From Candidatus Sungbacteria bacterium RIFCSPLOWO2_01_FULL_54_21 (GTDB lineage: Bacteria > Patescibacteriota > Minisyncoccia > Sungbacterales > HO2-52-23), in contig MHQR01000026.1 of the NCBI GenBank assembly GCA_001820725.1, positions 7,885-55,645 on the forward strand: a stretch of 47,761 nt of DNA, given 5' to 3'. The notes beneath the pieces were generated by a model. The model saw only the letters and a list, made by a program, of their open reading frames with translations. It did not search any database and was not told the DNA's origin. Of this stretch, positions 1,438 through 47,761 are shown one piece after another. A program made the translations under genes and the position numbers. Numbering within the stretch: position 1 is the first letter of the stretch; each line of letters begins with the position of its first letter.

Positions 1438-4400
1438 TTATTGCGTGATAACCTGCGAGTTGGTATTGGTGGTCGGAAGACCAGGTATACCATAGCCCGT
1501 GCTGAAGTCGTTGGCGAGATTAGACTGCGCCGTGGTGGTCGAGAACGGCCGCCAGACGAAGTCATAGCTCACTGCGGGAGTCGTCTTATTAGCCGGCTCT
1601 CGGAGATACGTGGTGGTTGCCATGTATGTCGAGGTCGCGGCAGTATGCGGGAATCCACCGCTGGTGCAACATGCGCCAGTCGTGAGGTCCGCCGCAAACT
1701 TGGCATCGCCCTGCAGTTGCGTGGACACGCTATACGTTGCCCCCGCAAGCGTAGCATCACCGCGAAGCACGAAATATCTCGTGCCGCCTGCCGGAATAAC
1801 CACCGTCGTGGAAGCATTGTCCGCGTCAGCCGCCCAGAACTCAATGTCTGTGGACGCGCTCGCCCAAGCGGTGCTCGGACTGCCCTCCAAACCCGTTATA
1901 TCAATGCTCGTCTGTAGCATCGCGCCGTCCGTCTGCAATCCGGTTACCGGTGTTGCGAAGGTTGAATCCGTAAACACATAGACATTCACATTGTCAATCA
2001 TGCCTAGCTGTGCTGTCGCGGATGTCGTTGCGATGCGCGCGGTAAGCTTCGCAATGCCCACGTCTCCTTCCACTGGTGCGGAGATCTTGAATTTCAGCAA
2101 GTCCCTCCTACCTGAAGTCAGCGCTCCGCCGCTCGTAAAGGATACTAGATCAAGCGTCGGATACGACCTGACTGCGCGGACACCAGCGCTTGCGGTTGCG
2201 GTCGTCAAGCTATCAATACGAATCCTCTGGCCGCTCGCCACTCCGGTAGCAAGTGATCCGCCTTGGGTTCCTGCAGGAATGTCAACTTGCACCAGCGATC
2301 CTGGAACACCGGCTTGTGATGTTCCCTGCGCCGCAACATCCACTTTTGCCGTCAAGAGCTTGCTGCCGTCTTTCGGCACCGTGAAGTCGCCGGACAGCGT
2401 CGTGGATGCATAGTAGCTCGCGCCGACAAACACCGACTCGCCTACCTTGGTCGCGCCATCCCACAGCGTTACTTTCGTCACATCCTGCGGAGAGGATGAT
2501 GCGTTCGGCACGCTGGATGCGCCTCCATTGGTAAGCTGGAGTCCTAGATCAGTCAATTTGACTGCCTCGTTGGTTGCCGTAAATCGGAATACTGATGTCG
2601 TGATAGCTGTCCTTCCGGCCGCCGTAAGGGTGTACGAAGGACTGGACGAATCCAAAGCAACGGCGAGCGAACCGTTTGCGGCAAGCGTCATGCGCTGTCC
2701 AGTTGAGTCGTTCTTCGTTACCGTTGCGGACTGACCCGAGGTCAAGCCGTTGACGGTCGGCGAGGCAGTGGTGTCAAAGCCCCACTGGTATATGCCGGTG
2801 CCGCCCGATGCGATGTTGCACTTCATTTCAAGCGTCTTTACCGTGCCCTTCAGAACCGTGAATCCTGATCCGTCGAACGTGACAAGCGTCGTGGAGCTGA
2901 TGGAACTCGGGTTCAAGATGTTACTGCCGGTGTTGAGGGCTGTGGCGCCGTCATACAGCTGGCAGGACGTCAGATTGGTCGCCGTAGTGCCGCTGAAATC
3001 CAACGGTAGGGAAGGCAGACGAACGTCTTCGCCGGATGCGCCCGCGTCAAGCAGGTACTTGGCAAAGGTGAACTTCTGCGCTCCTGAAACCACGGTCTGG
3101 GCCGGAGGATCGGACGATACGCTGATCGTCAGCGCCGCTGTTTTGAGGGTCATGGTAGACAGCGATACTGCCGATGTCGGGGACGGGGTTACCGTCTCGC
3201 CGGTAGTTACGCCTCGCACTGTCGTCCAGTCGGTTGAAGGAGTGGTGGACGCCTGTATCGCGGCGTTGTTCGGAATATCTGTTCCGTACTTTGCCTTCAA
3301 GGTGTACACATTCTTTCCCTCCGGGAAGGTTACCGTGTCGGTGAATGTCAGCTTGTATGTTGACGAGCCGTCAACCGGTCCCGCCACGATCTTGCCGTTG
3401 GTGTCGTAGATGGACACTTGGGTTACATCTGCGCCGGTCCCTGCGGCCACGCCGCCGCCGACGCTGATGTTGAATATCATCTGCGCTACCGATACCGACT
3501 CGCCGCGCACGTCAGCCAGGAAAGCGCCGAGGGACTGTCCGTTCAGGTTCACCGCGACGTTCTGCGATGTTACGGTCGTGGAATTCTCCACGTTCAGAGA
3601 ACCCTTGCCCACGGTAACTTGCGATGCGAAGTACCACGGGTTGGTAGAGGTGAATCCTGTACCCGAGGTCGGAGGCGTAATGCCAAAGCCGTAGGTTTCT
3701 CCGCGTACCGCGAGATCGGATGTCCTGTAGATGTTGAACTTGATCGTCCGGTCGGTTCCGCCGAGAATATCTCCCTTCACGAAGATTTCCGCCGAGCCGC
3801 CCTTGTCCAGAAGTATCGGGGGATCAAACCGTGAAGTGTAGTATTTTCCGTCTGCAGAAACCATTGCCGCATAGTCCTTTTTGGTTCCGCCGATCGGCTC
3901 TACGGTGGTCATCACGTTCGCGAGATCACTGCTACCGATAGAACCGACCTGGTTCCACCGAATGCTGTCAACGTATACCTTCTCCTGCGATCCTGCGGTA
4001 ACGCGAACCGAGGTGAAGATAAATGCTTTCTTTCCGATATCTTCCGTCGTGGTCGCGACGGACTTGTACGAACCGGTCTGATTGGTAACCGTGCCGATGG
4101 TCAGGGTCGTGTTCATGGTCATCCCATTCCCCACTACGGGAGAACTCAAGGTGACCTTGGACGTTCCCGCATCAACTGCGACGAGGGCGAGTTTTATGAT
4201 TTCACCCGCGACACTCGTGCCGGATCCAGCGCGATTTGCCGCCAGCGTCATAGTCCGAGACGTTCCGGCTTTCACGACGAATGCCTCATTCAGATTGGTT
4301 TGATGAAGGGAATTCAGCGTCTTTGCGAGACCATACTGAACGCCGTTTTCATCGAGAAGCAGTACTTCTGACAGTCCGCTGTCACTGCCCGGGCCCTGGC

Positions 4401-5094
4401 GTTCTGCCGTAAGCGAGCTTACCGTCACGTCTCCATCAGGAGCGGCGGTAAAGATCACTTTCGTAAAGGGCACCCGTGCGGCGCTCGCAGGAGCCAGTGC
4501 CGATGGCGGTTGGTCCACTGCCGCCGTTACCGTGAGGCCGCTACCAACCGGAGTTGGCGCTGTCGGCGTTCCCGGAGCCGTCGGCATAGTCGGAGTTGTC
4601 GGCGTCGTCGCTACTGCTACCAATGAATCATACTTCGCTCGAGACAATGTGCCGAAGTAGCCAGCGGCCGGCGATACGCCGTTGCCCGCTTGCCACTTCA
4701 TGACGGCCGCTTTGGTCAAACTGCCGAATGACATTGTCTCGTTGCCTGGCGATCCGGCGCCGCTTGCGGCGACCTGGTGGCCCGACGAGTTCAAATATTT
4801 CTGCAAACACATCACGTCATCACCGCGCACTCCCTGTGAGAGGTTGCGAGTGAAAGCGCATTTTGAAGCGCTCGATCCTGCGGCCGGGGTTGCCGGCGTG
4901 CCGGAGAGCGATCCAAGTTGCGCCTGGAGTGCTACGATCTGCGCGGTCAGCTGCTCAATCGTGTGCGCGGTCGTGTGATCCGCCACTGCAGCCAACGGCA
5001 CAAATGCCGCTACTCCTGAGATCGTGACTGCGGTTGCCAGAGCGATTACTTTCGCCCTAAGGCCTCCGCCTTCTCTTTTCAATCTCATGTGCAT
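1438..5094 (-). CDS. giant surface protein: signal anchor, peptidoglycan-binding-like domain, Pro/Thr linker, about 1000 aa Thr/Ser/Gly/Val-rich beta region
   Basis: 1218-aa ORF. N-terminus is LRAKVIALATAVTISGVAAFVPLAAVA. PG_binding_1-like segment is CLQKYLNSSGH..LTKAAVMKWQAGNGVSPAAGYFG. Linker is TTPTTPTMPTAPGTPTAPTP. The antisense ORFs across this span are shadow ORFs. Confidence 0.7.
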   Translation of the reverse strand: MHMRLKREGGGLRAKVIALATAVTISGVAAFVPLAAVADHTTAHTIEQLTAQIVALQAQLGSLSGTPATPAAGSSASKCAFTRNLSQGVRGDDVMCLQKYLNSSGHQVAASGAGSPGNETMSFGSLTKAAVMKWQAGNGVSPAAGYFGTLSRAKYDSLVAVATTPTTPTMPTAPGTPTAPTPVGSGLTVTAAVDQPPSALAPASAARVPFTKVIFTAAPDGDVTVSSLTAERQGPGSDSGLSEVLLLDENGVQYGLAKTLNSLHQTNLNEAFVVKAGTSRTMTLAANRAGSGTSVAGEIIKLALVAVDAGTSKVTLSSPVVGNGMTMNTTLTIGTVTNQTGSYKSVATTTEDIGKKAFIFTSVRVTAGSQEKVYVDSIRWNQVGSIGSSDLANVMTTVEPIGGTKKDYAAMVSADGKYYTSRFDPPILLDKGGSAEIFVKGDILGGTDRTIKFNIYRTSDLAVRGETYGFGITPPTSGTGFTSTNPWYFASQVTVGKGSLNVENSTTVTSQNVAVNLNGQSLGAFLADVRGESVSVAQMIFNISVGGGVAAGTGADVTQVSIYDTNGKIVAGPVDGSSTYKLTFTDTVTFPEGKNVYTLKAKYGTDIPNNAAIQASTTPSTDWTTVRGVTTGETVTPSPTSAVSLSTMTLKTAALTISVSSDPPAQTVVSGAQKFTFAKYLLDAGASGEDVRLPSLPLDFSGTTATNLTSCQLYDGATALNTGSNILNPSSISSTTLVTFDGSGFTVLKGTVKTLEMKCNIASGGTGIYQWGFDTTASPTVNGLTSGQSATVTKNDSTGQRMTLAANGSLAVALDSSSPSYTLTAAGRTAITTSVFRFTATNEAVKLTDLGLQLTNGGASSVPNASSSPQDVTKVTLWDGATKVGESVFVGASYYASTTLSGDFTVPKDGSKLLTAKVDVAAQGTSQAGVPGSLVQVDIPAGTQGGSLATGVASGQRIRIDSLTTATASAGVRAVRSYPTLDLVSFTSGGALTSGRRDLLKFKISAPVEGDVGIAKLTARIATTSATAQLGMIDNVNVYVFTDSTFATPVTGLQTDGAMLQTSIDITGLEGSPSTAWASASTDIEFWAADADNASTTVVIPAGGTRYFVLRGDATLAGATYSVSTQLQGDAKFAADLTTGACCTSGGFPHTAATSTYMATTTYLREPANKTTPAVSYDFVWRPFSTTTAQSNLANDFSTGYGIPGLPTTNTNSQVITQ

Positions 5095-5499
5095 AAGGTT
5101 ATGTATTATATGTTAATGACAGAAACCACTTCTTCCCTTCCCGCGTTGCAGAAATGAAAGAGGGCTTCCTGACAGGGGCGCTCATTTTTTATATCCGTCG
5201 ACTCCGAATCGGGTATAAAGATGGGCACATTAATAAATGATCGACTATCTATGGTCTTGTGTCTCGTGGGTTGTCAACGTGCTTTCGTTCTGCGTTCTTC
5301 CCTGGTTCGTTTCTTCTTGCGCTCCGCGTAGGAACCGATGTCTGCTTCCGTACCTCGACTCATACGCGCCGTGCAATTTTTATATTCGCCTCAACACCTC
5401 AAAACAGCCCAAAAGCGGCCTTTTTCGAGAAAAATTTCTTGAGAAAATTCATACGATACTTCTTATTATATGTACGGATGCCTGCCGATGCAATAACGT

Positions 5500-5509
5500 G
5501 TTATCCACA
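5500..5509 (-). promoter_or_regulatory. TGTGGATAAC motif (reverse orientation; plus strand reads GTTATCCACA)
   Basis: Perfect copy in the 590-nt non-coding leader upstream of the giant surface protein gene. Confidence 0.3.
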
Positions 5510-5599
5510 AGCGGGTATCGTGCGGCCTCTCTGCGTCAAAAGATACTCTATTATAGCGCGAGCAGATAGTCAAGCAAGCGGGCGCGCTGTGGAAAACTC

Positions 5600-5626
5600 G
5601 CGTAAACGATTAACAATCGTTTACGC
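5600..5626. repeat. perfect hairpin palindrome GCGTAAACGATT-AAC-AATCGTTTACGC
   Basis: 12-bp arms with a 3-nt loop. A near-identical palindrome is at 37523..37551. On the minus strand it is followed by GAGTTTTCC, so it could also terminate galU. Confidence 0.6.
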
Positions 5627-5683
5627 CGCTGCCTACGTTACGCGGAGTTGCTAGCATGTCCCCGTACCCATCCGCCCATCGCA

Positions 5684-6565
5684 TCATTTTTTATACTTTT
5701 CCGTAAGCCAGGCGCCAAATTGCTCCCCTATCTCCGGATGTTTCAGTCCCATATCCACCACCGCCCGCATATAGCCCAGTTTATCGCCACAATCATAGTA
5801 TGTGCCTTTTACGACATATCCATAAAAATCATGGCCGTCTTGGGCGTAGGCGGCAATGGCCGGGGGAATATACAATTCGCCATGCACCGGCTCCACCCGC
5901 TCAAGATAGGGAATGAAATCGGGCGTGAGGACAAACCTCGTGAGCGTGGCAAGATTGGTTGGCGCGGTCCCCGGAGCCGGTTTCTCCACAGCGCGCTTTA
6001 TTTTCCACACACCCGGCTCAACCTCAACGCCGTCAATAACGCCGTATCGATGGGCATTTTCGGGCGTGACTTCCACAAGACAGGTAACGGGCGCGCGATA
6101 CTTTTTATACACGGCTATCATCTGCGCCAATGCCGAGGGTTGGGCATCTATAATGTCATCCCCGGACAGCACGGCAAACGACTCGCCGTCAAAAAAGGGC
6201 TTGGCGGCAAGCACCGCGTCCGCAACGCCTTTTTGCTCCATCTGCCTCACAGACCCAAAAGACGCAAGCGACGATATTTCGCGGACAATGCGCAACGCTT
6301 CACCTTTTCCTTTGATCTCTAGAAAATGCTCCACTTCTGGTGCGCGATCAAAGTAGTCCTCAATCGCCAGCTTTCCCTTGCCCGTAACCAAAAGTATATC
6401 TTTCAGCCCTGCGCTCACGATCTCCTCTGCGAGAAAATGCACGAGCGGCTTGTCCACCAACGGGAGCATTTCTTTGGGAATTGCTTTGGTAACTGGAAGA
6501 AAACGCGTGCCGTAACCGGCCACGAGAATGATTGCTTTCTTTATATCGGTCATAGTATCAGACAT
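5684..6565 (-). CDS. galU: UTP--glucose-1-phosphate uridylyltransferase
   Basis: KAIILVAGYGTRFLPVTKAIPKEMLPLVDKPL N-terminal nucleotidyltransferase motif. 293 aa, typical length. Confidence 0.9.
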   Translation of the reverse strand: MSDTMTDIKKAIILVAGYGTRFLPVTKAIPKEMLPLVDKPLVHFLAEEIVSAGLKDILLVTGKGKLAIEDYFDRAPEVEHFLEIKGKGEALRIVREISSLASFGSVRQMEQKGVADAVLAAKPFFDGESFAVLSGDDIIDAQPSALAQMIAVYKKYRAPVTCLVEVTPENAHRYGVIDGVEVEPGVWKIKRAVEKPAPGTAPTNLATLTRFVLTPDFIPYLERVEPVHGELYIPPAIAAYAQDGHDFYGYVVKGTYYDCGDKLGYMRAVVDMGLKHPEIGEQFGAWLTEKYKK

Positions 6566-20173: not shown

Positions 20174-20278
20174 CCGCTCCCGATGTTGCGAGAGGTTCAA
20201 CCGCACGGCACCTGCGGGACACTGCCCCAAGTCCCCGATGTGCCGTGCCAAGCAACTTCACACAATATCGGTAGCGGG
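20174..20278 (+). repeat. R-type palindromic element, copy R1 (intergenic)
   Basis: 5' arm CCGCTCCCGATGTTG pairs with 3' arm CAATATCGGTAGCGG. Inner 9-bp stem GCACGGCAC/GTGCCGTGC. Arms are shared with 36963, 37510 and 44860(rev). Confidence 0.8.
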
Positions 20279-34533: not shown

Positions 34534-34899
34534 ATGGCGTTCACCGAGGATATAAAACTCGTCATCCTGTTTGGCTCCCGGGCGACCGAAAAGGCCGGCA
34601 GGCAATCCGATACCGATATCGCGGTGCTGGCGGATCATCCGCTCACCATTGCGGAAAAGGCGCGGATAGCCGAGGAGGCCGGCAGGGCGCTGGGTACTTC
34701 CGAAGATACCATTGATGTTGCGGACATTTGGCGCGCCCCGCCTCTGCTTCAGCAGGAAATCGCGCACAACGGAAAACTGCTCCACGGAGACGCTTTTGAT
34801 TTTGTCCGTTTCCGGGTGCTCGCGTGGAAGCGATACCTTGACACCGCCAAATTCCGGCGCGCTCGGGAGCGGGCGCTCGCCAAACGATATGGGCAGTGA
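34534..34899 (+). CDS. nucleotidyltransferase (MNT-type antitoxin)
   Basis: Start moved to MAFTEDIKLVILFGSRATEKAGRQSDTDIAVL (GS..DxD motif). Its stop overlaps the next gene by 11 nt. Confidence 0.8.
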   Translation: MAFTEDIKLVILFGSRATEKAGRQSDTDIAVLADHPLTIAEKARIAEEAGRALGTSEDTIDVADIWRAPPLLQQEIAHNGKLLHGDAFDFVRFRVLAWKRYLDTAKFRRARERALAKRYGQ

Positions 34900-35308
34900 A
34901 CTCATTTTCAAAAAACTTGAGCAGATCGCAGAAGTAGTGAGCGAGATGGAGCGCCTGCTTGCCGTTCCGCTTGGGACATTTGTGCGCGACTTGACGGCGG
35001 TGCGCGCCGCAGAGCGCAATTTCCAGCTCGCCGTGGATCTTGCATCCGACTGCAACGCGCAGATTTTGATTGAACGCGGAGGAAAGACCCCCGACACCTA
35101 CCGCGAGTCGTTTGCCGCATTGGAAAGAGAAGGCATTCTTTCAGGCGATCTTGCGCGCCGACTTATGGAAAGCGCAAAAGTGAGGAACATCCTTGTCCAT
35201 GAATACGATTTTGAGGAGGACTATGAGAAATTTTATCATGCGGCGCAGGCCAGCATCCCCGCATATCGCGAATATACAAAATCAATCTACGATTATATAC
35301 GCAAGTAA
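34889..35308 (+). CDS. HepT/DUF86 HEPN-domain toxin
   Basis: R-x4-H motif RNILVHEY near the C-terminus. 139 aa. Paired with the upstream MNT. Confidence 0.85.
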   Translation: MGSELIFKKLEQIAEVVSEMERLLAVPLGTFVRDLTAVRAAERNFQLAVDLASDCNAQILIERGGKTPDTYRESFAALEREGILSGDLARRLMESAKVRNILVHEYDFEEDYEKFYHAAQASIPAYREYTKSIYDYIRK

Positions 35309-41289: not shown

Positions 41290-43842
41290 TTATCGCCTTT
41301 GCTCCTGTTCTTTCACCGGCACGTCGGTTCTCTGTTGGGGGGGCACGGCAGGAGGCACGATGCCTTCGAGCGCCGGTTTACCGGCTTTCACGTTGGCGAT
41401 AATGCGCTGGATTTCCTGATTATCAGGGTTGGTGGCCGCGATGCGCCCGAATTCTTCCAACGCCCGCGTCCGGTCTTTTTTGCGATCATAAATGAGGCCG
41501 AGGAAATATCGGGCGTTGGCGTACTGCTCATTCATGCTGATCGCGCGTTCAAATTCCGCCTGCGCGCGCGCAAGATCATTTTTCTGATAGTAGAGGAGTC
41601 CTAGCTGAAAAGCGACACCTATGTCAAAAGGCGCGATGAGTTTGGTGTTTTCCACGCTTTGAATAGCGGCATCAAGATTGCCGAGACGTATGGCGGTTTG
41701 CGCCAGCAGAAAATGCGCGGGCGCGTAATCCTGCTTGGCCTGGATGGCGCGCTGGAAAATGGCCACTATTTGCTCAAGATTTTGCACTCTGGCTTTTTCC
41801 AGATCTTCCCGCTCCTTTCCCTGCGCCTGCTGTGCGGCGCTGGCAAGACGATCGGCAAACACCAGCCCTGCGCGGCCCCACTCCACATATGCTGCGGGGT
41901 TGAGCGGCTCACGTTCTATCGCGCGCTGATACGCTCCCGCCGCAATCCGTTCGGATCCGGGGATGAACGGAATGATGGATTCGTACAGCGAGCCCTGAAT
42001 CCGCCAGAGGGTCGGGTCTTGAGGATGCATAGCCGTGAGGTGTTGCGCATCCTGAATCGCAAGCGATACGGCTGACTGGAAATCCTGCTGGACGTTTTCG
42101 CCTGCGGCGGCGCGCTGAATCACGGAACGCACTTTTCCTATACGCGCCTGGGTGAGCATCTGCACATTGCGCCAGTTGCGCGGCTCATATTGCACGGCCC
42201 GCTCCAAGAGACCGATGGCGTCGTCGATCTTTCCGGCGTTGAACGCCGTGGCGCCACGGTCGGCGGCAAGCGCGGCGCGCACGCGTCCGACTTGGCCATA
42301 GAGCGCCGCGATGCCGAGCGCAATACAAAAGATGATCACAAGGGATGACGCGAATATCATGCCCGGCGTTTCAAACCGAACCATACGCTCCCGTATACTC
42401 CATATGCTCGGTCGTCCGGCCAATGCCAACCGGTCGCCAGATACCTCACTCTCGCGCGCATCCTCCGTCATTTCCGGCACTGCGTGCGCGGGAACGGCAA
42501 GGAGCGCTGCTAGCAGACCCGCCAAGAAGAATAATAGCAGGAGCAACGACGTGTTTGCGGGATAGAGAAACGCCGCAATGAGGAGCGTCACCCATCCGAG
42601 AAAAGAGCTCATGACGAGCGGATCCCCCGTCCTGTTTTGCATAGTGCCGTCTCCGGCAGACGAAGACGAGAGTAGTATGCGCAAAAATACGAAGAGTGAA
42701 ACGGCGAAAAATCCGATGAGCGAAATCAAGCCCAAGATGCCGCCAGTCGGCAATGCGGTCGCGACCCATGACTGGCCCTGATTAAACCGGACGCCCCAAA
42801 AGGCGGTTTGATTGATTGCAGGATCTTTGTATTTCGCCCAATCAAGCCCGAACATGGCCGGACCGGAACCCAGGAATACCCGCAGAGGCCCCTCGCGAAA
42901 TACGTTCCCCGCGATGGAAAAGGTGGCGCTCGCCGAAGGCGATATTTCGGCCGGCGCTTCAAGTTTGCCGATAATAGCGCCCGGCGCCATAATCATGGCG
43001 ATCGAAAATATCACCAGTCCGAGCGCCGTCCATTGCCGCCAGCCAAACCGGCGGACATTGTCGCCGGACACATCGCCAGGTCGATGTTTTGATACGTCGA
43101 TGAGCAGGAGACCGAACAGGCACACCGAGGCGACCAGCACCAGAATCCATGCGGTCCAAAAATGCACGAACGCAATGTCCGCCAGAAAAATAAGCGCGGC
43201 CGCGGCACATGCCGCGCGCACCCATGTCTTCCATCCCTCGACAGCCCGCGAAAGCAGGAGTCCTACGGTCATCATGAGCAGTACCGCGTATAAAAGCGTC
43301 ATGCCGTTGACCGTGCCGATCACATTGAAGAAGGGCTGGGTCGGCAGAAATCCTATCGGCCCAACGACAAATGTATACAGCGTAAGTAATCCCGCCGCCG
43401 CCCCCGAGAAAATCAGCACAAAGAGCAGTGTTCCTGCGGATGCGTGTGCGGCAGTGGCATCGGCTTCCGCTCCGCGATTTTTCAGAATGCCGCCGGTTGC
43501 CGCCATCAGCGCAAGCCCTGCAACAAGCGTGATCAGCCGTTCAGCTCCGGCCTCCGCGAAAAAGGCCGAAACAAAAGGGGCATGGCTGAATGCGGCACTC
43601 GCGCTCCATACGGCGATGAGCACGGCGCCTGCCCAAAGGAGCGGAGAGACCGGATACCGCATCTCTCCGCGAGCCAACACGCCAATCAGCCACAGGACGC
43701 CTGCGATGGCCGTAAGCGCGACAAACGCCACATCGCGTCCAATATCCGTACCCAAAGGCGCGGGTACTGCCAGAAGCGGCATGACGGCCGCGATGATGTA
43801 CAATACGATTTTAGAACTGTATGCGAATCTATCGGTCATCAT
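41290..43842 (-). CDS. polytopic membrane protein (O-antigen ligase/polymerase-like) with C-terminal TPR domain
   Basis: About 480 aa of TM helices, then TPR repeats (AFNAGKIDDAIGLLERAVQYEP.., ARAQAEFERAISMNEQYANARYFLGLIY..). Confidence 0.6.
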   Translation of the reverse strand: MMTDRFAYSSKIVLYIIAAVMPLLAVPAPLGTDIGRDVAFVALTAIAGVLWLIGVLARGEMRYPVSPLLWAGAVLIAVWSASAAFSHAPFVSAFFAEAGAERLITLVAGLALMAATGGILKNRGAEADATAAHASAGTLLFVLIFSGAAAGLLTLYTFVVGPIGFLPTQPFFNVIGTVNGMTLLYAVLLMMTVGLLLSRAVEGWKTWVRAACAAAALIFLADIAFVHFWTAWILVLVASVCLFGLLLIDVSKHRPGDVSGDNVRRFGWRQWTALGLVIFSIAMIMAPGAIIGKLEAPAEISPSASATFSIAGNVFREGPLRVFLGSGPAMFGLDWAKYKDPAINQTAFWGVRFNQGQSWVATALPTGGILGLISLIGFFAVSLFVFLRILLSSSSAGDGTMQNRTGDPLVMSSFLGWVTLLIAAFLYPANTSLLLLLFFLAGLLAALLAVPAHAVPEMTEDARESEVSGDRLALAGRPSIWSIRERMVRFETPGMIFASSLVIIFCIALGIAALYGQVGRVRAALAADRGATAFNAGKIDDAIGLLERAVQYEPRNWRNVQMLTQARIGKVRSVIQRAAAGENVQQDFQSAVSLAIQDAQHLTAMHPQDPTLWRIQGSLYESIIPFIPGSERIAAGAYQRAIEREPLNPAAYVEWGRAGLVFADRLASAAQQAQGKEREDLEKARVQNLEQIVAIFQRAIQAKQDYAPAHFLLAQTAIRLGNLDAAIQSVENTKLIAPFDIGVAFQLGLLYYQKNDLARAQAEFERAISMNEQYANARYFLGLIYDRKKDRTRALEEFGRIAATNPDNQEIQRIIANVKAGKPALEGIVPPAVPPQQRTDVPVKEQEQRR

Positions 43843-43996
43843 ACAAAAAGTTTAAAGATTTAAATAATTTTTAAGCCCACTGCGTCGTGCCTCTTCCCTG
43901 CTCATCACGCCGCGCCCCGTAAACACCCTCCCCTCCTGATTTTGTATCGTAGCCATAGCGTTTTCAATATGTGGATATGTCGATATTTACTATCCG

Positions 43997-44494
43997 TTAT
44001 CCGCTTTCGCCGTCTTTCTTATACCCGGGCATAAACTTCTTCCACGCTTGTTCCAATCGCAACATCTTCCTCCGTACATATATATACTTTTTAATCGCGC
44101 CGTCAAAGAATTCCCACGGGATGCCGCTCTCGCAGATATCGCGGAACTGCTCCAAATACACGATCATCTTGTTACAGTTGAGCATGGCTTTTTCAATCGC
44201 CGCGATACCGGCGATATGATCGCCGAAGCGGAGCGAATGGGCTTCCGCCACCTGATGCGGGATACCCAATGCGCACGGGAGCATATTCTTTATCAGCAAT
44301 TCATCAATAAGATTCGTGTGCTCCGCCTGTTTTTTCTTGATTTTTGCGCGTGCGGCCAAAAAATTATTTACTTCTCGCGCCACGAGCACCGAGCACTCCA
44401 ATGCCTTCTGATACACCTCCAGATCCTGAAAGCTGTGGAGCGGTCGGCGCGGATAATAGGGACGTTGCTCTTGTTTTTGATAATACATAGTCAT
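43997..44494 (-). CDS. four-helix-bundle protein (23S rRNA IVS protein / Avd-like family)
   Basis: SFQDLEVYQKALECSVLVAREV is the family hallmark (F-x-D-L-x-V-[WY]-Q-K-A). 165 aa. Its ATG overlaps the upstream gene's TGA (ATGA). Confidence 0.75.
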   Translation of the reverse strand: MTMYYQKQEQRPYYPRRPLHSFQDLEVYQKALECSVLVAREVNNFLAARAKIKKKQAEHTNLIDELLIKNMLPCALGIPHQVAEAHSLRFGDHIAGIAAIEKAMLNCNKMIVYLEQFRDICESGIPWEFFDGAIKKYIYVRRKMLRLEQAWKKFMPGYKKDGESG

Positions 44495-45708
44495 GTGAGC
44501 GTCGGCCGCAGGGCAATATCGGTAAGCGACTCATTACGCGTGTACACCCCCTCTTTGGTCATAATATTTTTCCGATCCGATCGCGGCTTCCGCTGTTTCC
44601 CCCGACCCTTATGGACGACGTGGAGCGGGAAGAATTCAAAATAGTCCTTTTCATCAAACCACGCGCATTTGAAAGCATACATGCGCAGGCCCGTGAGCCG
44701 CGAGAGCGCCATGGCGTAAAGCGTCAATTGCTCGATCGGCTTTTCTTTTGCCGCATTGGGCTTGTAGTCGAGAATATGTATCTGGCCGTTACGCACCTGC
44801 ACGAGATCAATGTGGCCGGTAATCAATCGGGGAAGTTCCTCTGCCGACAATTGACGTAACCCGCTACCGATATTGTCCGCTTTTACAGCAAGTCCCAATT
44901 GGGACTTGCCTCGACGCCGGGCAACATCGGGAGCGTATAACTCAAACCCCAACTGTCTCTGCATATGCAACAAATCGTCCTTTCTAATGTACACCGGCAC
45001 TTCGACCGCCACGGTTACCGTATCGTTAGCAAGCATGAATTTCTGCACTGCCTCGTGCCGGTCTTTGTTCCTCTCCACTCCCTGCAGGGCGAATGCGGCG
45101 AGCGCATTGGCAAAATTATGTTTTGACCGCACGATCATCTGCTCCTTTGAAAACCGCAGAGGCGATTCGGACATCCGCAGCCCTTCTTGAAAATACTGGT
45201 GCGGCGTCTCACTGGATACGAGCGACAAAAACTCGGCGAGCGGCCCGAAGCTGGCGTGCCTGATGTCTTCGCGGATGATCATCCTGGTTTTCGCCCGATG
45301 CCACATGAAGCGGTAGAGCTGGCGGTGCGCGAGTGTGGCTGTCTCTACCACATGCTCCGGCCGGAACATCTTGAGCGCGAACGGGCGATAGCGGTGATAC
45401 CGGCAGAGTTCCTTGAATTCTTCCACCCAGTTGGCTACCGTCGAAGCCGATATATCAAAATCCGTTTTCTGCTTTATGATCTTGCACGCCTGCTCCAGCG
45501 AAAATCCGAGGTTATAGTAGCTCATGGCATCAATGATCACGCGGTGCGGATAGTGCTTGCCTTTTACTTCCTTGGGCGTGAACGCGCGCAGGCACGAGCG
45601 GCACAGCCACAGCTGTACGCGCTCGCGCTTTTTTTCGCGCCATCCCCGCTTCACCGTATCCGGCGAGGCGCAATAGGCGCATGGTGTTGTGGACAACTTA
45701 CTTGACAT
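44491..45708 (-). CDS. InsA-like Zn-ribbon + HTH fused to a PD-(D/E)xK (RecB/Cas4-like) nuclease domain
   Basis: Start moved to MSSKLSTTPCAYCASPDTVKRGW..LCRSCLRAF (CxxC..CxxC). HTH-like FSLEQACKIIKQKTDFDISASTVANWV. C-terminus has VAVEVPVY .. GHIDLVQV .. IHILDYKP .. QLTLYAMAL (E, D, D-x-K and Q-x-x-x-Y motifs). Repeat R4 lies in frame between the E and D strands. Confidence 0.5.
   Translation of the reverse strand: MSSKLSTTPCAYCASPDTVKRGWREKKRERVQLWLCRSCLRAFTPKEVKGKHYPHRVIIDAMSYYNLGFSLEQACKIIKQKTDFDISASTVANWVEEFKELCRYHRYRPFALKMFRPEHVVETATLAHRQLYRFMWHRAKTRMIIREDIRHASFGPLAEFLSLVSSETPHQYFQEGLRMSESPLRFSKEQMIVRSKHNFANALAAFALQGVERNKDRHEAVQKFMLANDTVTVAVEVPVYIRKDDLLHMQRQLGFELYAPDVARRRGKSQLGLAVKADNIGSGLRQLSAEELPRLITGHIDLVQVRNGQIHILDYKPNAAKEKPIEQLTLYAMALSRLTGLRMYAFKCAWFDEKDYFEFFPLHVVHKGRGKQRKPRSDRKNIMTKEGVYTRNESLTDIALRPTLT
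44860..44935 (-). repeat. R-type element, copy R4 (inside the nuclease gene)
   Basis: On the minus strand: CGCTCCCGATGTTG ... GCAAGTCCCAATTGGGACTTGC (22-nt perfect palindrome) ... CAATATCGGTAGCGGG. Translated as APDVARRRGKSQLGLAVKADNIGSG. Confidence 0.8.
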
Positions 45709-45722
45709 TGTTTTCGGTTCTG

Positions 45723-46073
45723 CTAATGTAACAGTACATTCGGCATTCGCCGCGGCCCCGCCAAAAGCGGGGAATTTTTTATGCTTTGATGCAAACACAC
45801 ATACATGCTTTTGCCTTCTTGCGTAATCTCGACATACCAGGAACCTTCTTTTCTCTGTGATGTGGTGGGCGCAACAAGATAAAATTCGCGGGATAATTTT
45901 TTGAGAATAATTCCCGGCCTTGAAGACAGGTTGCTCTTTCCATTCATCTCAAAACCAACATTTTCCCCGAAACTTATCCACCACAAATCACGCTCCTTAA
46001 CCAAGGGCGGCACATGTTGCGTATCATGCAGTTTCTCTTTTAATTTTATCCACTCCAAAAATCTTTTGATCAT
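45723..46073 (-). CDS. PemK/MazF-family toxin-like protein, C-terminus apparently replaced
   Basis: FLEWIKLKEKLH..ERDLWWISFGENVGFEMNGK..SRPGIILKK..LVAPTTSQRK..WYVEI fits the solitary MazF-like family as I remember it. After ..VCLHQ the expected IR-x-x-D-x-K-R-L segment is missing. Confidence 0.6.
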   Translation of the reverse strand: MIKRFLEWIKLKEKLHDTQHVPPLVKERDLWWISFGENVGFEMNGKSNLSSRPGIILKKLSREFYLVAPTTSQRKEGSWYVEITQEGKSMYVCLHQSIKNSPLLAGPRRMPNVLLH

Positions 46074-46151
46074 ATCTCACGATTTGACTTCTAACGGGTC
46101 TCACGGCTTTTGGGGAATCTGGCACTCCTTTCGAAATCCGTGATATGAAAA

Positions 46152-47761
46152 TCACGGCGTTTCTGCGGTCGTCGTGGAAGTTTCTCCTCCCGCGGGAGGC
46201 GGGGCATCCAGCGTTTCCGCGATGGTCGTCGCGACTTCCTCGACCGGCAGCACTGATGTCGCACCTTCAGCAGGAGACGAAACCTCGGCGATCGTCTCTT
46301 CTGAAGTTTCCAAGGAAGTCGGACTTCCTGCGGGAAGTCCGACTTCCTGCGCCGTCCCGCACGCTCCACTCTGCGGCACCACGGCCCCGCTCACGATCTT
46401 CACGCAATACGGCTCTTTCGTCACTTCGTCATACAGCGTGATGCCCGACGGCGCCGCGGCTGATCCCACTGTCACTTTCTGCGCAATGAGTTCATCCGTA
46501 ATCACCCGCACCGCCATGAGCGTCCCATCTTCATCCATACTCCACTTGCCCAGATAGCCCGTGATTTTTTTTACATCCAAGATTGAATTGCCCTGCATAT
46601 TGATGTCGCCCATAAACGACACATTCACGCGGCCGGACTGCTGATCCACGCTCCATCCATTGATCCCAAAGCCCAAGGTCTCTCTTCCATCGGAAGTGAG
46701 CCCTTGCGCGTTTATAGCCGCATCCAGCTTCGCGGCTCCCCTCTGCACAAAAGCAAGTATTTTAGCCGTTCCCGCGCCCTGATACGGCTCCAGCGCGATG
46801 GCCACGGTCGCGTCTCCGTCTTTTGCTTTCATGCCTACGCCCGCTACTGACGAGATGGTGATCCGATCTCCCGGCAGGATGGGCCCGTTTTCATTATTTA
46901 CTTTGAGCGGAACTCTCCCTGCCAGCGCCACGGGCTTGAATTGAGAGCCGAGAGTGAAGCCCGTGGTGTCTCCGAGGACAATGCCCGGCTTGGTGGAGAT
47001 AATGCCGATGGCGCGATCTCTGCCCTCCTGCGTTGCCTTTTCCACGGAACCGGTAAGGGATTCAATCACTTCAACCACCGAATCCGGCTTGTATTTTTCA
47101 TTCAACTTCTGCTCGTCCGTGTCGCGCTTGCCCTGCTCGTGGGCGGAAAGAGAGAGCGCGACCATTACAATGTCTCCCTCCTCAATAGAAAGATCTGCTA
47201 ACGGATAATTCTCCGCAAGATCGGATGCCCCAATGTTTTCACTATCCGCGTAGGTAGCACCCGCAGTGAGCGTTGCCTGACATTTGGCGGTGCCGTTGTT
47301 GTCCACGCACAGTGCTCCATTGCGGCCGATGATGTCGCGCTGGGTAGATCCGTTCCAAACAGTGAGGGCGCCTTCGGACAAAATCCCTGATGCTCCGGCG
47401 ACAGATAAAATTGTGCCCGGACTCGTCGTCCCGATGCCGACGTTGCCGCTACTGTCTATAATAATCCCATCCGAACCACCGAGTGTTTTGGTAAGACTGA
47501 GTTTTCCCGCTATATCTCCTACCGCGATTTGATAATCAGCGGTTCCATAATGATTCAATGTTATCCTGGCTTTATCGCCCGTCGCTCCCCCTCTCAAATA
47601 GAGAGATGCATCTCCAGCCGAGCCGTTCACCCCAACTAAAATTTGGCCTGTATTTAATGTGAGTTTCTGTGTTGGCCCCGTCGTCCCGATGCCGACGTTG
47701 CCGCTTGATTGACTATTCAACACAAGGGAACTTGCATCAAGACGCAACTGCTTATACGTCG
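46152..47761 (-). CDS. fibre-like surface protein, C-terminal part (5' end runs off the window end)
   Basis: The frame stays open upstream of the tracked TTG at 47747. Repeated GNVGIGTT[GS]P motifs, GASDLAENYPLAD..GDIVMV.., and a Thr/Glu/Pro-rich C-terminal tail. Confidence 0.7.
   Translation of the reverse strand, partial: TYKQLRLDASSLVLNSQSSGNVGIGTTGPTQKLTLNTGQILVGVNGSAGDASLYLRGGATGDKARITLNHYGTADYQIAVGDIAGKLSLTKTLGGSDGIIIDSSGNVGIGTTSPGTILSVAGASGILSEGALTVWNGSTQRDIIGRNGALCVDNNGTAKCQATLTAGATYADSENIGASDLAENYPLADLSIEEGDIVMVALSLSAHEQGKRDTDEQKLNEKYKPDSVVEVIESLTGSVEKATQEGRDRAIGIISTKPGIVLGDTTGFTLGSQFKPVALAGRVPLKVNNENGPILPGDRITISSVAGVGMKAKDGDATVAIALEPYQGAGTAKILAFVQRGAAKLDAAINAQGLTSDGRETLGFGINGWSVDQQSGRVNVSFMGDINMQGNSILDVKKITGYLGKWSMDEDGTLMAVRVITDELIAQKVTVGSAAAPSGITLYDEVTKEPYCVKIVSGAVVPQSGACGTAQEVGLPAGSPTSLETSEETIAEVSSPAEGATSVLPVEEVATTIAETLDAPPPAGGETSTTTAETP

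Follow-up and report, generated by a model that had tools for sequence, protein, structure and literature searches.

What are three small genes on one strand doing between an envelope gene and the gene of a fibre-like surface protein in a bacterium of the Candidate Phyla Radiation (CPR)? The question is raised by an islet at positions 43997-46073 of a stretch of 47,761 nt, called here the window, on contig MHQR01000026.1 of Candidatus Sungbacteria bacterium RIFCSPLOWO2_01_FULL_54_21. An earlier reading, made from the letters alone (hereafter the sequence-only reading), described the islet as a truncated MazF-like toxin gene, a gene for a nuclease with a zinc-ribbon/helix-turn-helix (HTH) N-terminus, and a coupled gene for a four-helix-bundle protein of the Avd kind, and it suggested either a homing or transposition module or a defence module. 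The layout holds: the list of open reading frames (ORFs) of the window places all three ORFs on the minus strand at the coordinates given in Table 1, with MurJ and a TPR membrane protein on one side and PHROG tail-fibre matches on the other. As shown below, the nuclease and the four-helix-bundle protein are the products of one conserved two-gene cassette specific to Patescibacteria/CPR, and this cassette is probably, if far from certainly, a selfish homing-type element living in giant CPR genes for fibre-like surface proteins. The main clue to its function is its link to fibre genes and to inteins. Related loci fetched for comparison carry L-numbers (L001, L030, L097 and so on).

A word-indexed search returned 2,757 homologs of the nuclease; the best 120 all have E < 1e-140, and the named ones among them belong to Patescibacteria/CPR groups or to unclassified bacteria. 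A scan of 185,579 species-representative genomes gave 300 encoding stretches, and their lineage-labelled records are almost all Patescibacteria/CPR, bar a few third-party labels of the 'uncultured' type, while the representative library holds 1,728 nuclease clusters at 50% identity, non-CPR relatives included. Of the 85 loci in the first set, 82 have the four-helix-bundle gene directly downstream of the nuclease gene, and the other three are on contigs that end too soon. Among 80 further loci from the metagenome set the gene was present in 72 of the 72 with at least 500 nt of downstream room; a few contigs were fetched in both sets, and the distinct loci number ~150. The gap between the two genes has a median of ~10 nt and becomes an overlap in 17 of 66 pairs, with the ATGA type common. 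The sequence-only reading had noticed this overlap, and the translational coupling that it implies, in the window, where both are plain in the sequence, and had proposed a look at gene neighbourhoods elsewhere; every related locus with enough downstream DNA has the pair. Several diverged copies can occur in one metagenome-assembled genome (MAG), and recent transposition was rejected on the divergence of these copies, which are 84-87% identical in JBAQNU01 and ~73% in MGKI01.

Outside CPR, distant relatives of the nuclease with the same architecture and 35-45% identity occur in Elusimicrobiota, Methylomirabilales, Omnitrophota and Desulfosarcina. The four-helix-bundle partner is absent from the three such loci examined (among L174-L177; Desulfosarcina, Methylomirabilales and Elusimicrobiota). 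These relatives sit in mobile or variable islands, their contexts being an RHS toxin with a serine resolvase and Prim-Pol, a ParB-like protein with an SNF2 helicase, and an IS3-type element. No copy was found in 2.9 million IMG/VR viral contigs, and a phage origin was rejected for this lack of relatives.

The nuclease is a zinc-ribbon/HTH region fused to a RecB/AddA/Cas4-like PD-(D/E)xK domain, an architecture that the sequence-only reading had recognized. Of its two possible starts, the ATG is the better supported, as a product of 405 amino acids is called in other assemblies of the organism and the closest homologs start there. Its Cys4 zinc ribbon (residues 10-39) is followed by helical domains (HTH-like and middle) and by a RecB-like core with the catalytic residues D301, D314-x-K316 and Q327...Y331; the protein belongs to PF12705 (PDDEXK_1), with 28.2 bits against a cut-off of 22 bits. 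In an alignment of 18 sequences, in which the mean column identity across CPR lineages is 54%, C10, C13, C36 and C39 and the motifs GHID (D301), LDYK (D314, K316) and EQLTxY (Q327, Y331) are invariant. The window copy has CAYC...CRSC, GHID, LDYK and EQLTLY, all invariant or nearly so across homologs, and the catalytic motif D...DxK...QxxxY is intact in 85 of the 86 loci checked. Whether the C-terminal part would model as a PD-(D/E)xK domain had been named as a check: the AlphaFold model (predicted local distance difference test, pLDDT, 79.7) finds its best PDB matches by Foldseek in the nuclease domains of RecB and AddA, in Cas4 and in MGME1, the matches being modest (E ~3e-3, probabilities up to 0.98). 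Equivalog models of RecB, AddA and Cas4 also give weak matches.

The window nuclease shares its fold and the D...DxK...QxxxY signature with RecB, AddA and Cas4 (PF12705), but it has no helicase and its genomic context differs. Nor is it Cas4 proper: TIGR00372 gives 12.6 bits against 65, the C-terminal part lacks the four-cysteine Fe-S set around the core (the sole Cys4 is the N-terminal zinc ribbon), and there are no cas genes among the neighbours. The N-terminus had been assigned to the IS1 InsA type, and of this claim the zinc ribbon and the helices following it are indeed present, as in IS1 InsA, IS1595 and IS6, whereas the scores are too low for membership. Because the IS1/IS1595 zinc-domain model NF050000 (19.9 against 28 bits), the transposase model NF033558 (18.8 against 100 bits) and the IS6 N-terminal match (24 against 125 bits) all fall below their cut-offs, the 'InsA-like' N-terminus is a resemblance only. 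Unlike these insertion sequences, the cassette has no DDE domain, terminal inverted repeats or target duplication. The sole matches of the nuclease profile to PDB sequences are zinc ribbons of the Rpb9/TFIIS type.

The partner is harder to classify. Scans of the window protein with Pfam and NCBIfam gave zero matches, and all its homologs are annotated as 'hypothetical'. Its AlphaFold model (pLDDT 87.4) is an up-down bundle of four helices (residues 23-52, 60-88, 93-120 and 127-152) resembling solved members of the 23S-IVS family, and its top PDB match by Foldseek is 2rld_A, a structural-genomics protein of the 'S23'/23S-IVS family (probability 1.0, TM 0.75 on the target, E only 8e-3). Six of 20 members of the partner family match PF05635 below threshold, at 16-25 bits against 33.8, in the same register and always starting at a common F-x-D-L-E-V-Y-Q motif; the window copy itself gives no match. 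Across an alignment of 42 homologs the invariant residues are F22, D24, L25, E26, Y28, Q29, P79, H86, S87, R89, F90, M104, C107, N108, E115, R141, K143, L147, W151 and K153. The assignment to the Avd/23S-IVS family therefore survives as to fold and not as to the family threshold, and the model points to a distant relative of the 23S-IVS/Avd four-helix-bundle fold rather than a certified member of the family.

With the 23S-IVS/'S23' family (PF05635, TIGR02436), which includes the Avd proteins of diversity-generating retroelements (DGRs), the cassette protein shares its similar size, the N-terminal F-x-D-L-x-V-Y/W-Q and the A-E-x-H/G of helix 2 in the same register, and an encoding within intervening or mobile sequences; it differs in its scores, which reach at most ~25 bits, and from Avd in having a nuclease, not a reverse transcriptase, as its partner. 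Canonical four-helix-bundle genes of 23S-IVS type occur as separate extra genes in 18 loci, and profile-profile comparison of the cassette family with these neighbours gives a probability of 1-3%, as against only 24% between the two canonical subfamilies themselves, so that the comparison has little power; searching the cassette profile against sequences of solved structures gave nothing meaningful. As the sequence-only reading had stated, no reverse transcriptase accompanies the pair: no RVT family is found among the genes called on the TPR side of the cassette, as far as ~10 kb beyond the TPR gene, or among the neighbours that recur in related loci. A DGR was ruled out for this reason and because the spare fibre modules described below are not template/variable pairs.

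The clearest indication of what the cassette may be comes from loci in which the nuclease ORF is hundreds of codons overlong. Here the additional codons consist of the end of a fibre protein, with its GNVGIGTT repeats, followed by the N-terminal splicing blocks of an intein (...G(Q/H)|C(V/M)TGDTL...GDEVLSLN...SGRVIRTTxxHPYLV). At or just after the stop of the four-helix-bundle gene another ORF starts with ...WxKVSELxxGMxIAVP...VYDIEVEGTHNFVxNGIxAHN|T-Y-I-x-GNVGIGTT, in which the C-terminal splicing blocks lead into Thr+1 and further fibre repeats. In L030, for example, Pfam finds Intein_splicing (PF14890) positions 10-84 together with PDDEXK_1 in the upstream ORF (23-2539), while the downstream ORF (3031-5730) opens with PF14890 positions 73-152. 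The intein N-half lies just upstream of the nuclease in 46 of 165 loci (~28%), and in 10 of the 46 no stop separates the two, so that they are in frame. The splicing residues C1, TxxH, HN and T+1 are intact in the split inteins, and the extein junction is conserved as GIGTTxPxxKLHVxG|C...AHN|TY(I/L)xGNVGIGTT; without the intein, a fibre junction would read ...KLHVEG-TYISGNVGIGTT.... In L001 (3-4901) a single fibre gene, of more than 1,632 amino acids within the locus and 2,481 in full, contains, at the same kind of site, three inteins of this type that are contiguous and lack the cassette. Their splicing halves are joined by linkers of 150-200 amino acids with no recognisable domain, and the gene also encodes a Peptidase_S74 chaperone domain.

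Split inteins with a free-standing homing-endonuclease gene between their halves are known as fractured genes, whose endonucleases also occur as stand-alone inserts (Dassa et al. 2009, PMC2677866). Judged from its splicing blocks, the cassette family has this layout in the loci just described, with the N-terminal blocks closing the upstream ORF and the C-terminal blocks and nucleophile opening the downstream one, and like the published cases it has the host gene in two ORFs, a nuclease between them, and stand-alone copies too. The published hosts are DNA-metabolism enzymes, mainly of phages, with single endonuclease genes (Vsr-like or other), whereas the hosts of the cassette are giant CPR fibre genes, a second gene is constantly present, no viral copies were found, and the copy in the window stands alone. 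The fractured-gene arrangement with a homing-type nuclease is thus already known. In the open-access literature, neither CPR inteins carrying this nuclease nor the nuclease/four-helix-bundle pair was found to be described, and the parts that seem new are the family of zinc-ribbon/HTH plus RecB-like nucleases, its obligate 23S-IVS/Avd-like partner, and CPR chromosomal surface-fibre genes as hosts.

Homing by a nuclease of restriction-enzyme fold would have precedents as well. I-Ssp6803I is a homing endonuclease of PD-(D/E)xK fold, and such nucleases are found in intervening sequences or free-standing near their targets. The I-Bth0305I family consists of Vsr-like homing endonucleases of PD-(D/E)xK fold (PMC3239194). 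The cassette nuclease resembles both in its fold and in lying within intervening sequences or free-standing beside its presumed target, but no sequence or profile match links it to them; it is much larger, has the RecB/AddA/Cas4 signature with QxxxY, and carries a transposase-like N-terminal DNA-binding region.

The homing reading is favoured because, in those ~28% of loci, the pair fills the homing-endonuclease position of a split intein in a fibre gene. On this reading, in about a quarter of loci, the cassette would occupy the usual position of an intein homing endonuclease and break the fibre gene into two ORFs, the first closing with the intein N-half, sometimes in frame with the nuclease, the four-helix-bundle gene coming next, and then the C-half with Thr+1 and the fibre repeats; trans-splicing of the two products would rebuild the fibre protein. 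With its zinc ribbon and HTH the nuclease would attach to DNA; it would cut fibre alleles that are free of the cassette, and repair would copy the cassette into the cut allele. The four-helix-bundle protein, as obligate partner, would most likely act as a cofactor by binding the nuclease, nucleic acid or both, much as Avd serves the reverse transcriptases of DGRs; alternatively, it might restrain the nuclease. A bolder version, in which the two proteins form a two-component homing machine that creates and maintains the split inteins of CPR fibre genes, with the four-helix-bundle protein as an obligate cofactor binding nucleic acid or the enzyme, is put forward only tentatively. Support for homing is indirect and comes from the intein position, the conserved catalytic motif and the variable points of insertion. 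Of the two suggestions in the sequence-only reading, a homing module fits the split-intein position; transposition does not fit, with no terminal inverted repeats or target duplications and with same-genome copies as diverged as stated above.

Most copies of the cassette are free of intein halves, yet they remain tied to fibre genes. Of the 41 loci whose flank is long enough, 33 have a fibre-like ORF within 2.5 kb upstream; in 21 of the first 86 loci a TPR membrane-protein gene lies downstream. The window and its closest relatives (L007, L095 and L097; nuclease 72-80% identical) share the order fibre, cassette, TPR gene, and in all of these but L097 the TPR gene is the next one after the cassette. 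In five loci (L006, L045, L097, L098 and L100) the four-helix-bundle gene is followed by an orphan C-terminal module of a fibre protein that starts at varied residues, from 329 to 410. The upstream fibre gene retains its own diverged version of this module, the spare modules being diverged paralogs. From the different starts of the orphan modules it follows that the cassette was attached to the 3' ends of fibre genes at several positions, and the copy in the window is the trimmed form. The orphan module itself (MAVRVxTDE...GITLYDExTxxPYC...) is located at L006 2903-2957, L045 3470-3802, L097 4180-4344, L098 3965-4264 and L100 1765-2151. Among close relatives the nuclease is 75-77% and the four-helix-bundle protein 68-87% identical, against lower values of 45-48% for the TPR protein and 41-72% for the fibre protein.

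The sequence-only reading had held that vertical conservation in all relatives would speak against a mobile islet: the locus is syntenic in the closest relatives, and the residue at which the orphan fragment starts varies among the five loci just named. Since the locus is syntenic among its closest relatives, the window copy is inherited in place and not a fresh insertion. No allele without the islet turned up from which its ends and a target-site duplication could have been defined: the cassette is present, in the same arrangement, in all eight same-organism assemblies that cover the site, these being recognized by their identical TPR protein, and no convincing terminal repeats surround it. 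The other assemblies of this organism comprise GCA_001822455.1 (MHQX01000039) and several metagenome assemblies.

Several observations weigh against homing. About 70% of loci, the window included, have no flanking intein halves, and the synteny in the closest relatives gives no sign of recent movement here. Among the fetched loci, no empty/filled pair of near-identical alleles was found, and a regular-expression search for an uninterrupted extein junction gave zero. For the most part, nucleases of the RecB/Cas4 type are exonucleases or cut single strands, rather than cutting at specific sites. Homing endonucleases are usually single, fast-decaying genes, whereas here the nuclease shows unusually high conservation and its partner is obligate, both of which hint at host-level or addiction-type selection. 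Since these two traits are atypical of homing endonucleases, they keep two other explanations alive.

In the first of these the pair is an addiction module of the toxin-antitoxin kind: the nuclease would be a DNA-damaging toxin, the co-translated four-helix-bundle protein its inhibitor, and the pair would persist since its loss kills the cell. The strict co-inheritance, the translational coupling, the order of nuclease then small partner, and the conserved catalytic residues and high overall conservation all fit, and MazF-like, HicA and HepT/MNT toxin-antitoxin genes share the neighbourhoods of the cassette. We nevertheless consider it unlikely, as it does not account for an insertion exactly between blocks B and F of the intein, for nuclease ORFs fused in frame to the N-half or for the tie to one class of gene; moreover, the non-CPR relatives of the nuclease live without the partner, and antitoxin genes more often come first.

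Equally doubtful is a role recruited by the host, in which nuclease and four-helix-bundle protein would trigger recombination or gene conversion of fibre modules, or regulate fibre genes, and so diversify surface fibres as an analogue of DGR and Avd that needs no reverse transcriptase. The frequent fibre-like gene upstream, the diverged spare C-terminal modules just past the cassette in five close relatives, the unusually strong conservation and the resemblance of the partner to the Avd/23S-IVS fold would all be expected. The spare modules, however, are diverged paralogs and not template/variable repeat pairs, and the window, L007 and L095 have none; copies embedded in an intein have the look of a classical selfish arrangement, and the distribution among CPR species is patchy.

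Far less probable is a polymorphic-toxin module, with the nuclease as a C-terminal toxin freed from a secreted fibre by HINT and the small protein as its immunity protein. In the 10 loci where the nuclease follows a Hint-type domain of the fibre protein in frame, with the small gene directly next, the arrangement does look like this; PT-HINT gives weak matches, and one relative lies near an RHS toxin gene. Yet only the Hint N-half precedes the nuclease, and the C-half, with its terminal Asn and Thr+1, opens the next ORF; the Hint fold is thus split around the cassette and followed by extein, and the fibre repeats after the C-half mark an intein and not a pre-toxin HINT. Toxin tips are hypervariable and this nuclease is highly conserved, a cytoplasmic-type Cys4 zinc ribbon with HTH would be odd in an exported toxin, and most copies are free-standing.

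Just as improbable, finally, is an insertion sequence with a PD-(D/E)xK transposase in place of DDE, or an anti-phage defence pair: the N-terminus resembles the DNA-binding regions of IS1/IS1595/IS6, JGI labels some homologs 'transposase-like' and PADLOC reports Cas4-like motif matches, but there are no terminal inverted repeats or target-site duplications, same-genome copies are only 84-87% identical, the location is tied to fibre genes, and beyond weak Cas4-like motif matches and one weak DpdD match PADLOC finds no defence system, to which the absence from 2.9 million viral contigs may be added. The defence module suggested by the sequence-only reading is accordingly unsupported.

The third gene of the islet, the MazF-like one, does not belong to the unit; it stands beside the cassette in 11 of 86 loci, as one among several small genes whose presence there varies, and is an incidental neighbour. 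Its truncation, on the other hand, was seen correctly. A profile built from nine intact neighbours has 129 positions, of which the window copy covers 1-96 only; the homology spans 46073..45786 (residues 1-96), and the final 20 codons are out-of-family read-through into the nuclease leader. PF02452 gives 15.3 bits against a cut-off of 23.1 over profile positions 2-66 of 109, and phrog_9567 is matched at positions 7-93 of 144. The ortholog in L097 is an intact PemK/MazF protein of 129 amino acids, 81% identical and scoring 42 bits over positions 2-108, and ~100 nt of the L097 mazF region are gone from the window. The gene in the window is therefore the truncated remnant of a true PemK/MazF member that lost its last ~33 codons by a deletion of ~100 nt. 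A G+C-rich hairpin (Table 1) marks the deletion junction and the start of the nuclease leader common to relatives, and DNA homology to L045 and L097 picks up again at 45773-45778. A mazF split by the cassette, with the 34-codon ORF of the downstream spacer as its C-terminus, was rejected: its profile E is 21, and L097 shows the deletion.

Table 1. Features of the islet and its flanks in the window (coordinates in the numbering of the window).
Feature	Position	Strand	Remarks
TPR multi-pass membrane-protein gene	41290..43842		850 aa; other flank of the islet, beside MurJ
Spacer between four-helix-bundle gene and TPR gene	43843..43996	.	154 nt; contains a 34-codon ORF (43956..43852)
Four-helix-bundle partner gene	43997..44494	-	165 aa
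ATGA overlap of nuclease stop (TGA) and four-helix-bundle start (ATG)	44491..44494	-	from the sequence
Nuclease gene	44491..45708	-	ATG start, 405 aa; GTG at 45798 would give 435 aa
Imperfect palindrome (inverted repeat I1)	44862..44935	.	74 nt; in frame in a surface loop of the nuclease, encodes ...RRRGKSQLGLAVKADNIGSG...
Cys4 zinc-ribbon codons of the nuclease (CAYC...CRSC)	45592..45681	-	motif in ORF
G+C-rich hairpin CCCCGC-loop-GCGGGG	45756..45772	.	terminator-like site, in plus-strand sense only
MazF/PemK-like gene, 3' end lost	45723..46073	-	116 aa
Fibre-like surface-protein gene, 3' part	46152..47747	-	GNVGIGTT repeats; runs off the window; PHROG tail-fibre matches

The wider surroundings add a number of observations. 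The three islet genes have a G+C content of 0.44-0.52, against a higher 0.55-0.62 in the flanks. There is no tRNA in the window, an Rfam scan of it gave zero matches, and a search of all of it found no intein half, the TPR membrane-protein gene standing in place of the ORF with the C-half. Transposon ends were rejected, as no convincing terminal inverted or direct repeats lie around 43843-46151. A perfect 16-nt inverted repeat (AGGAAGTCGGACTTCC / GGAAGTCCGACTTCCT) at 46313-46348, at the same time a 19-nt tandem direct repeat, sits in the low-complexity tail of the fibre gene. About 9 kb off the cassette, between pilin-like (N_methyl) genes, lies a HepT-like/MNT toxin-antitoxin pair (HEPN nuclease plus nucleotidyltransferase) at ~34534-35308 on the plus strand, mapped from L086 12925-13699. 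As for the same-organism loci L086-L093, at seven of these eight places the contig runs out within the fibre gene, at 1.3-2 kb upstream of the cassette; L091, the remaining one, begins 40 nt ahead of the TPR gene and is hence uninformative on the cassette. The fibre repeats, and possibly the cassette too, break the assemblies.

Small genes come and go beside and inside the cassette in related loci, among them MazF-like, canonical four-helix-bundle, RAYT-like, GIY-YIG, BRO and HicA genes, and cassette-bearing fibre loci are hot spots for small selfish genes. The canonical 23S-IVS-type genes are of two subtypes (13 and 5 loci) and sit next to the cassette or separate the nuclease from its partner, while RAYT-like genes in 12 loci, GIY-YIG genes in 8 and BRO genes in 5, as well as HicA, are found at its flanks; loci with such flanking genes include L010, L014, L017, L020, L021, L022, L031, L038, L041, L050, L061, L066, L077, L082 and others. 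In L097 a GIY-YIG gene (1928-2450; PF01541, 48.7 bits) lies within the 5' end of the nuclease gene, flanked by two nuclease N-termini, a dead 27-codon remnant upstream and the working copy downstream, and it is a nested insertion of one homing-type gene into another.

A different kind of small insert is seen within the coding sequences. The loop encoded by the palindrome in the window nuclease is missing from its closest homologs (P0003, P0008, P0011 and L007). Related palindromes of 70-105 nt, with termini (C/G)TNCCGAT(A/G)TT ... AA(C/T)ATCGGNA(C/G), lie in frame in other coding regions and encode motifs of the 'DNIGSG' or 'NIGTGT' type in loops of the nuclease, the four-helix-bundle protein and intein linkers; sites are L008 1756-1846, L017 4119-4197, L056 5849-5954 and L080 7175-7279, and the motif also matches the window at 20264 and 41048. 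In related loci totalling 1.285 Mb the terminal motif was counted 91 times, ~70 times the chance expectation. These palindromes may be likened to the in-frame palindromic elements of Rickettsia.

As regards the window, the finding is a small one: its single copy of the cassette stands alone, was inherited, and lies next to a decayed toxin gene. For the family it may be larger. If the homing reading holds, the cassette nuclease represents a new and very abundant putative family of homing endonucleases, with an architecture unreported for homing enzymes, and the fracturing of genes by split inteins, known mainly from phage DNA-metabolism genes, would be common in chromosomal surface-fibre genes of CPR. 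This would also explain the breaks in CPR assemblies at fibre loci, and the natural split inteins, which have a Thr+1 junction, would form a reservoir of possible tools for protein ligation. A 23S-IVS/Avd-like four-helix-bundle protein tied to a nuclease in a mobile intervening element would, in addition, make the function of such proteins experimentally testable. Should the more tentative two-component version prove true, it would give a first functional handle on the 23S-IVS four-helix-bundle family as a general helper of mobile intervening elements, one that serves reverse transcriptases in DGRs and nucleases in the cassette, and the split fibre genes of CPR bacteria might possibly be recombined at the protein level, through trans-splicing between different halves.

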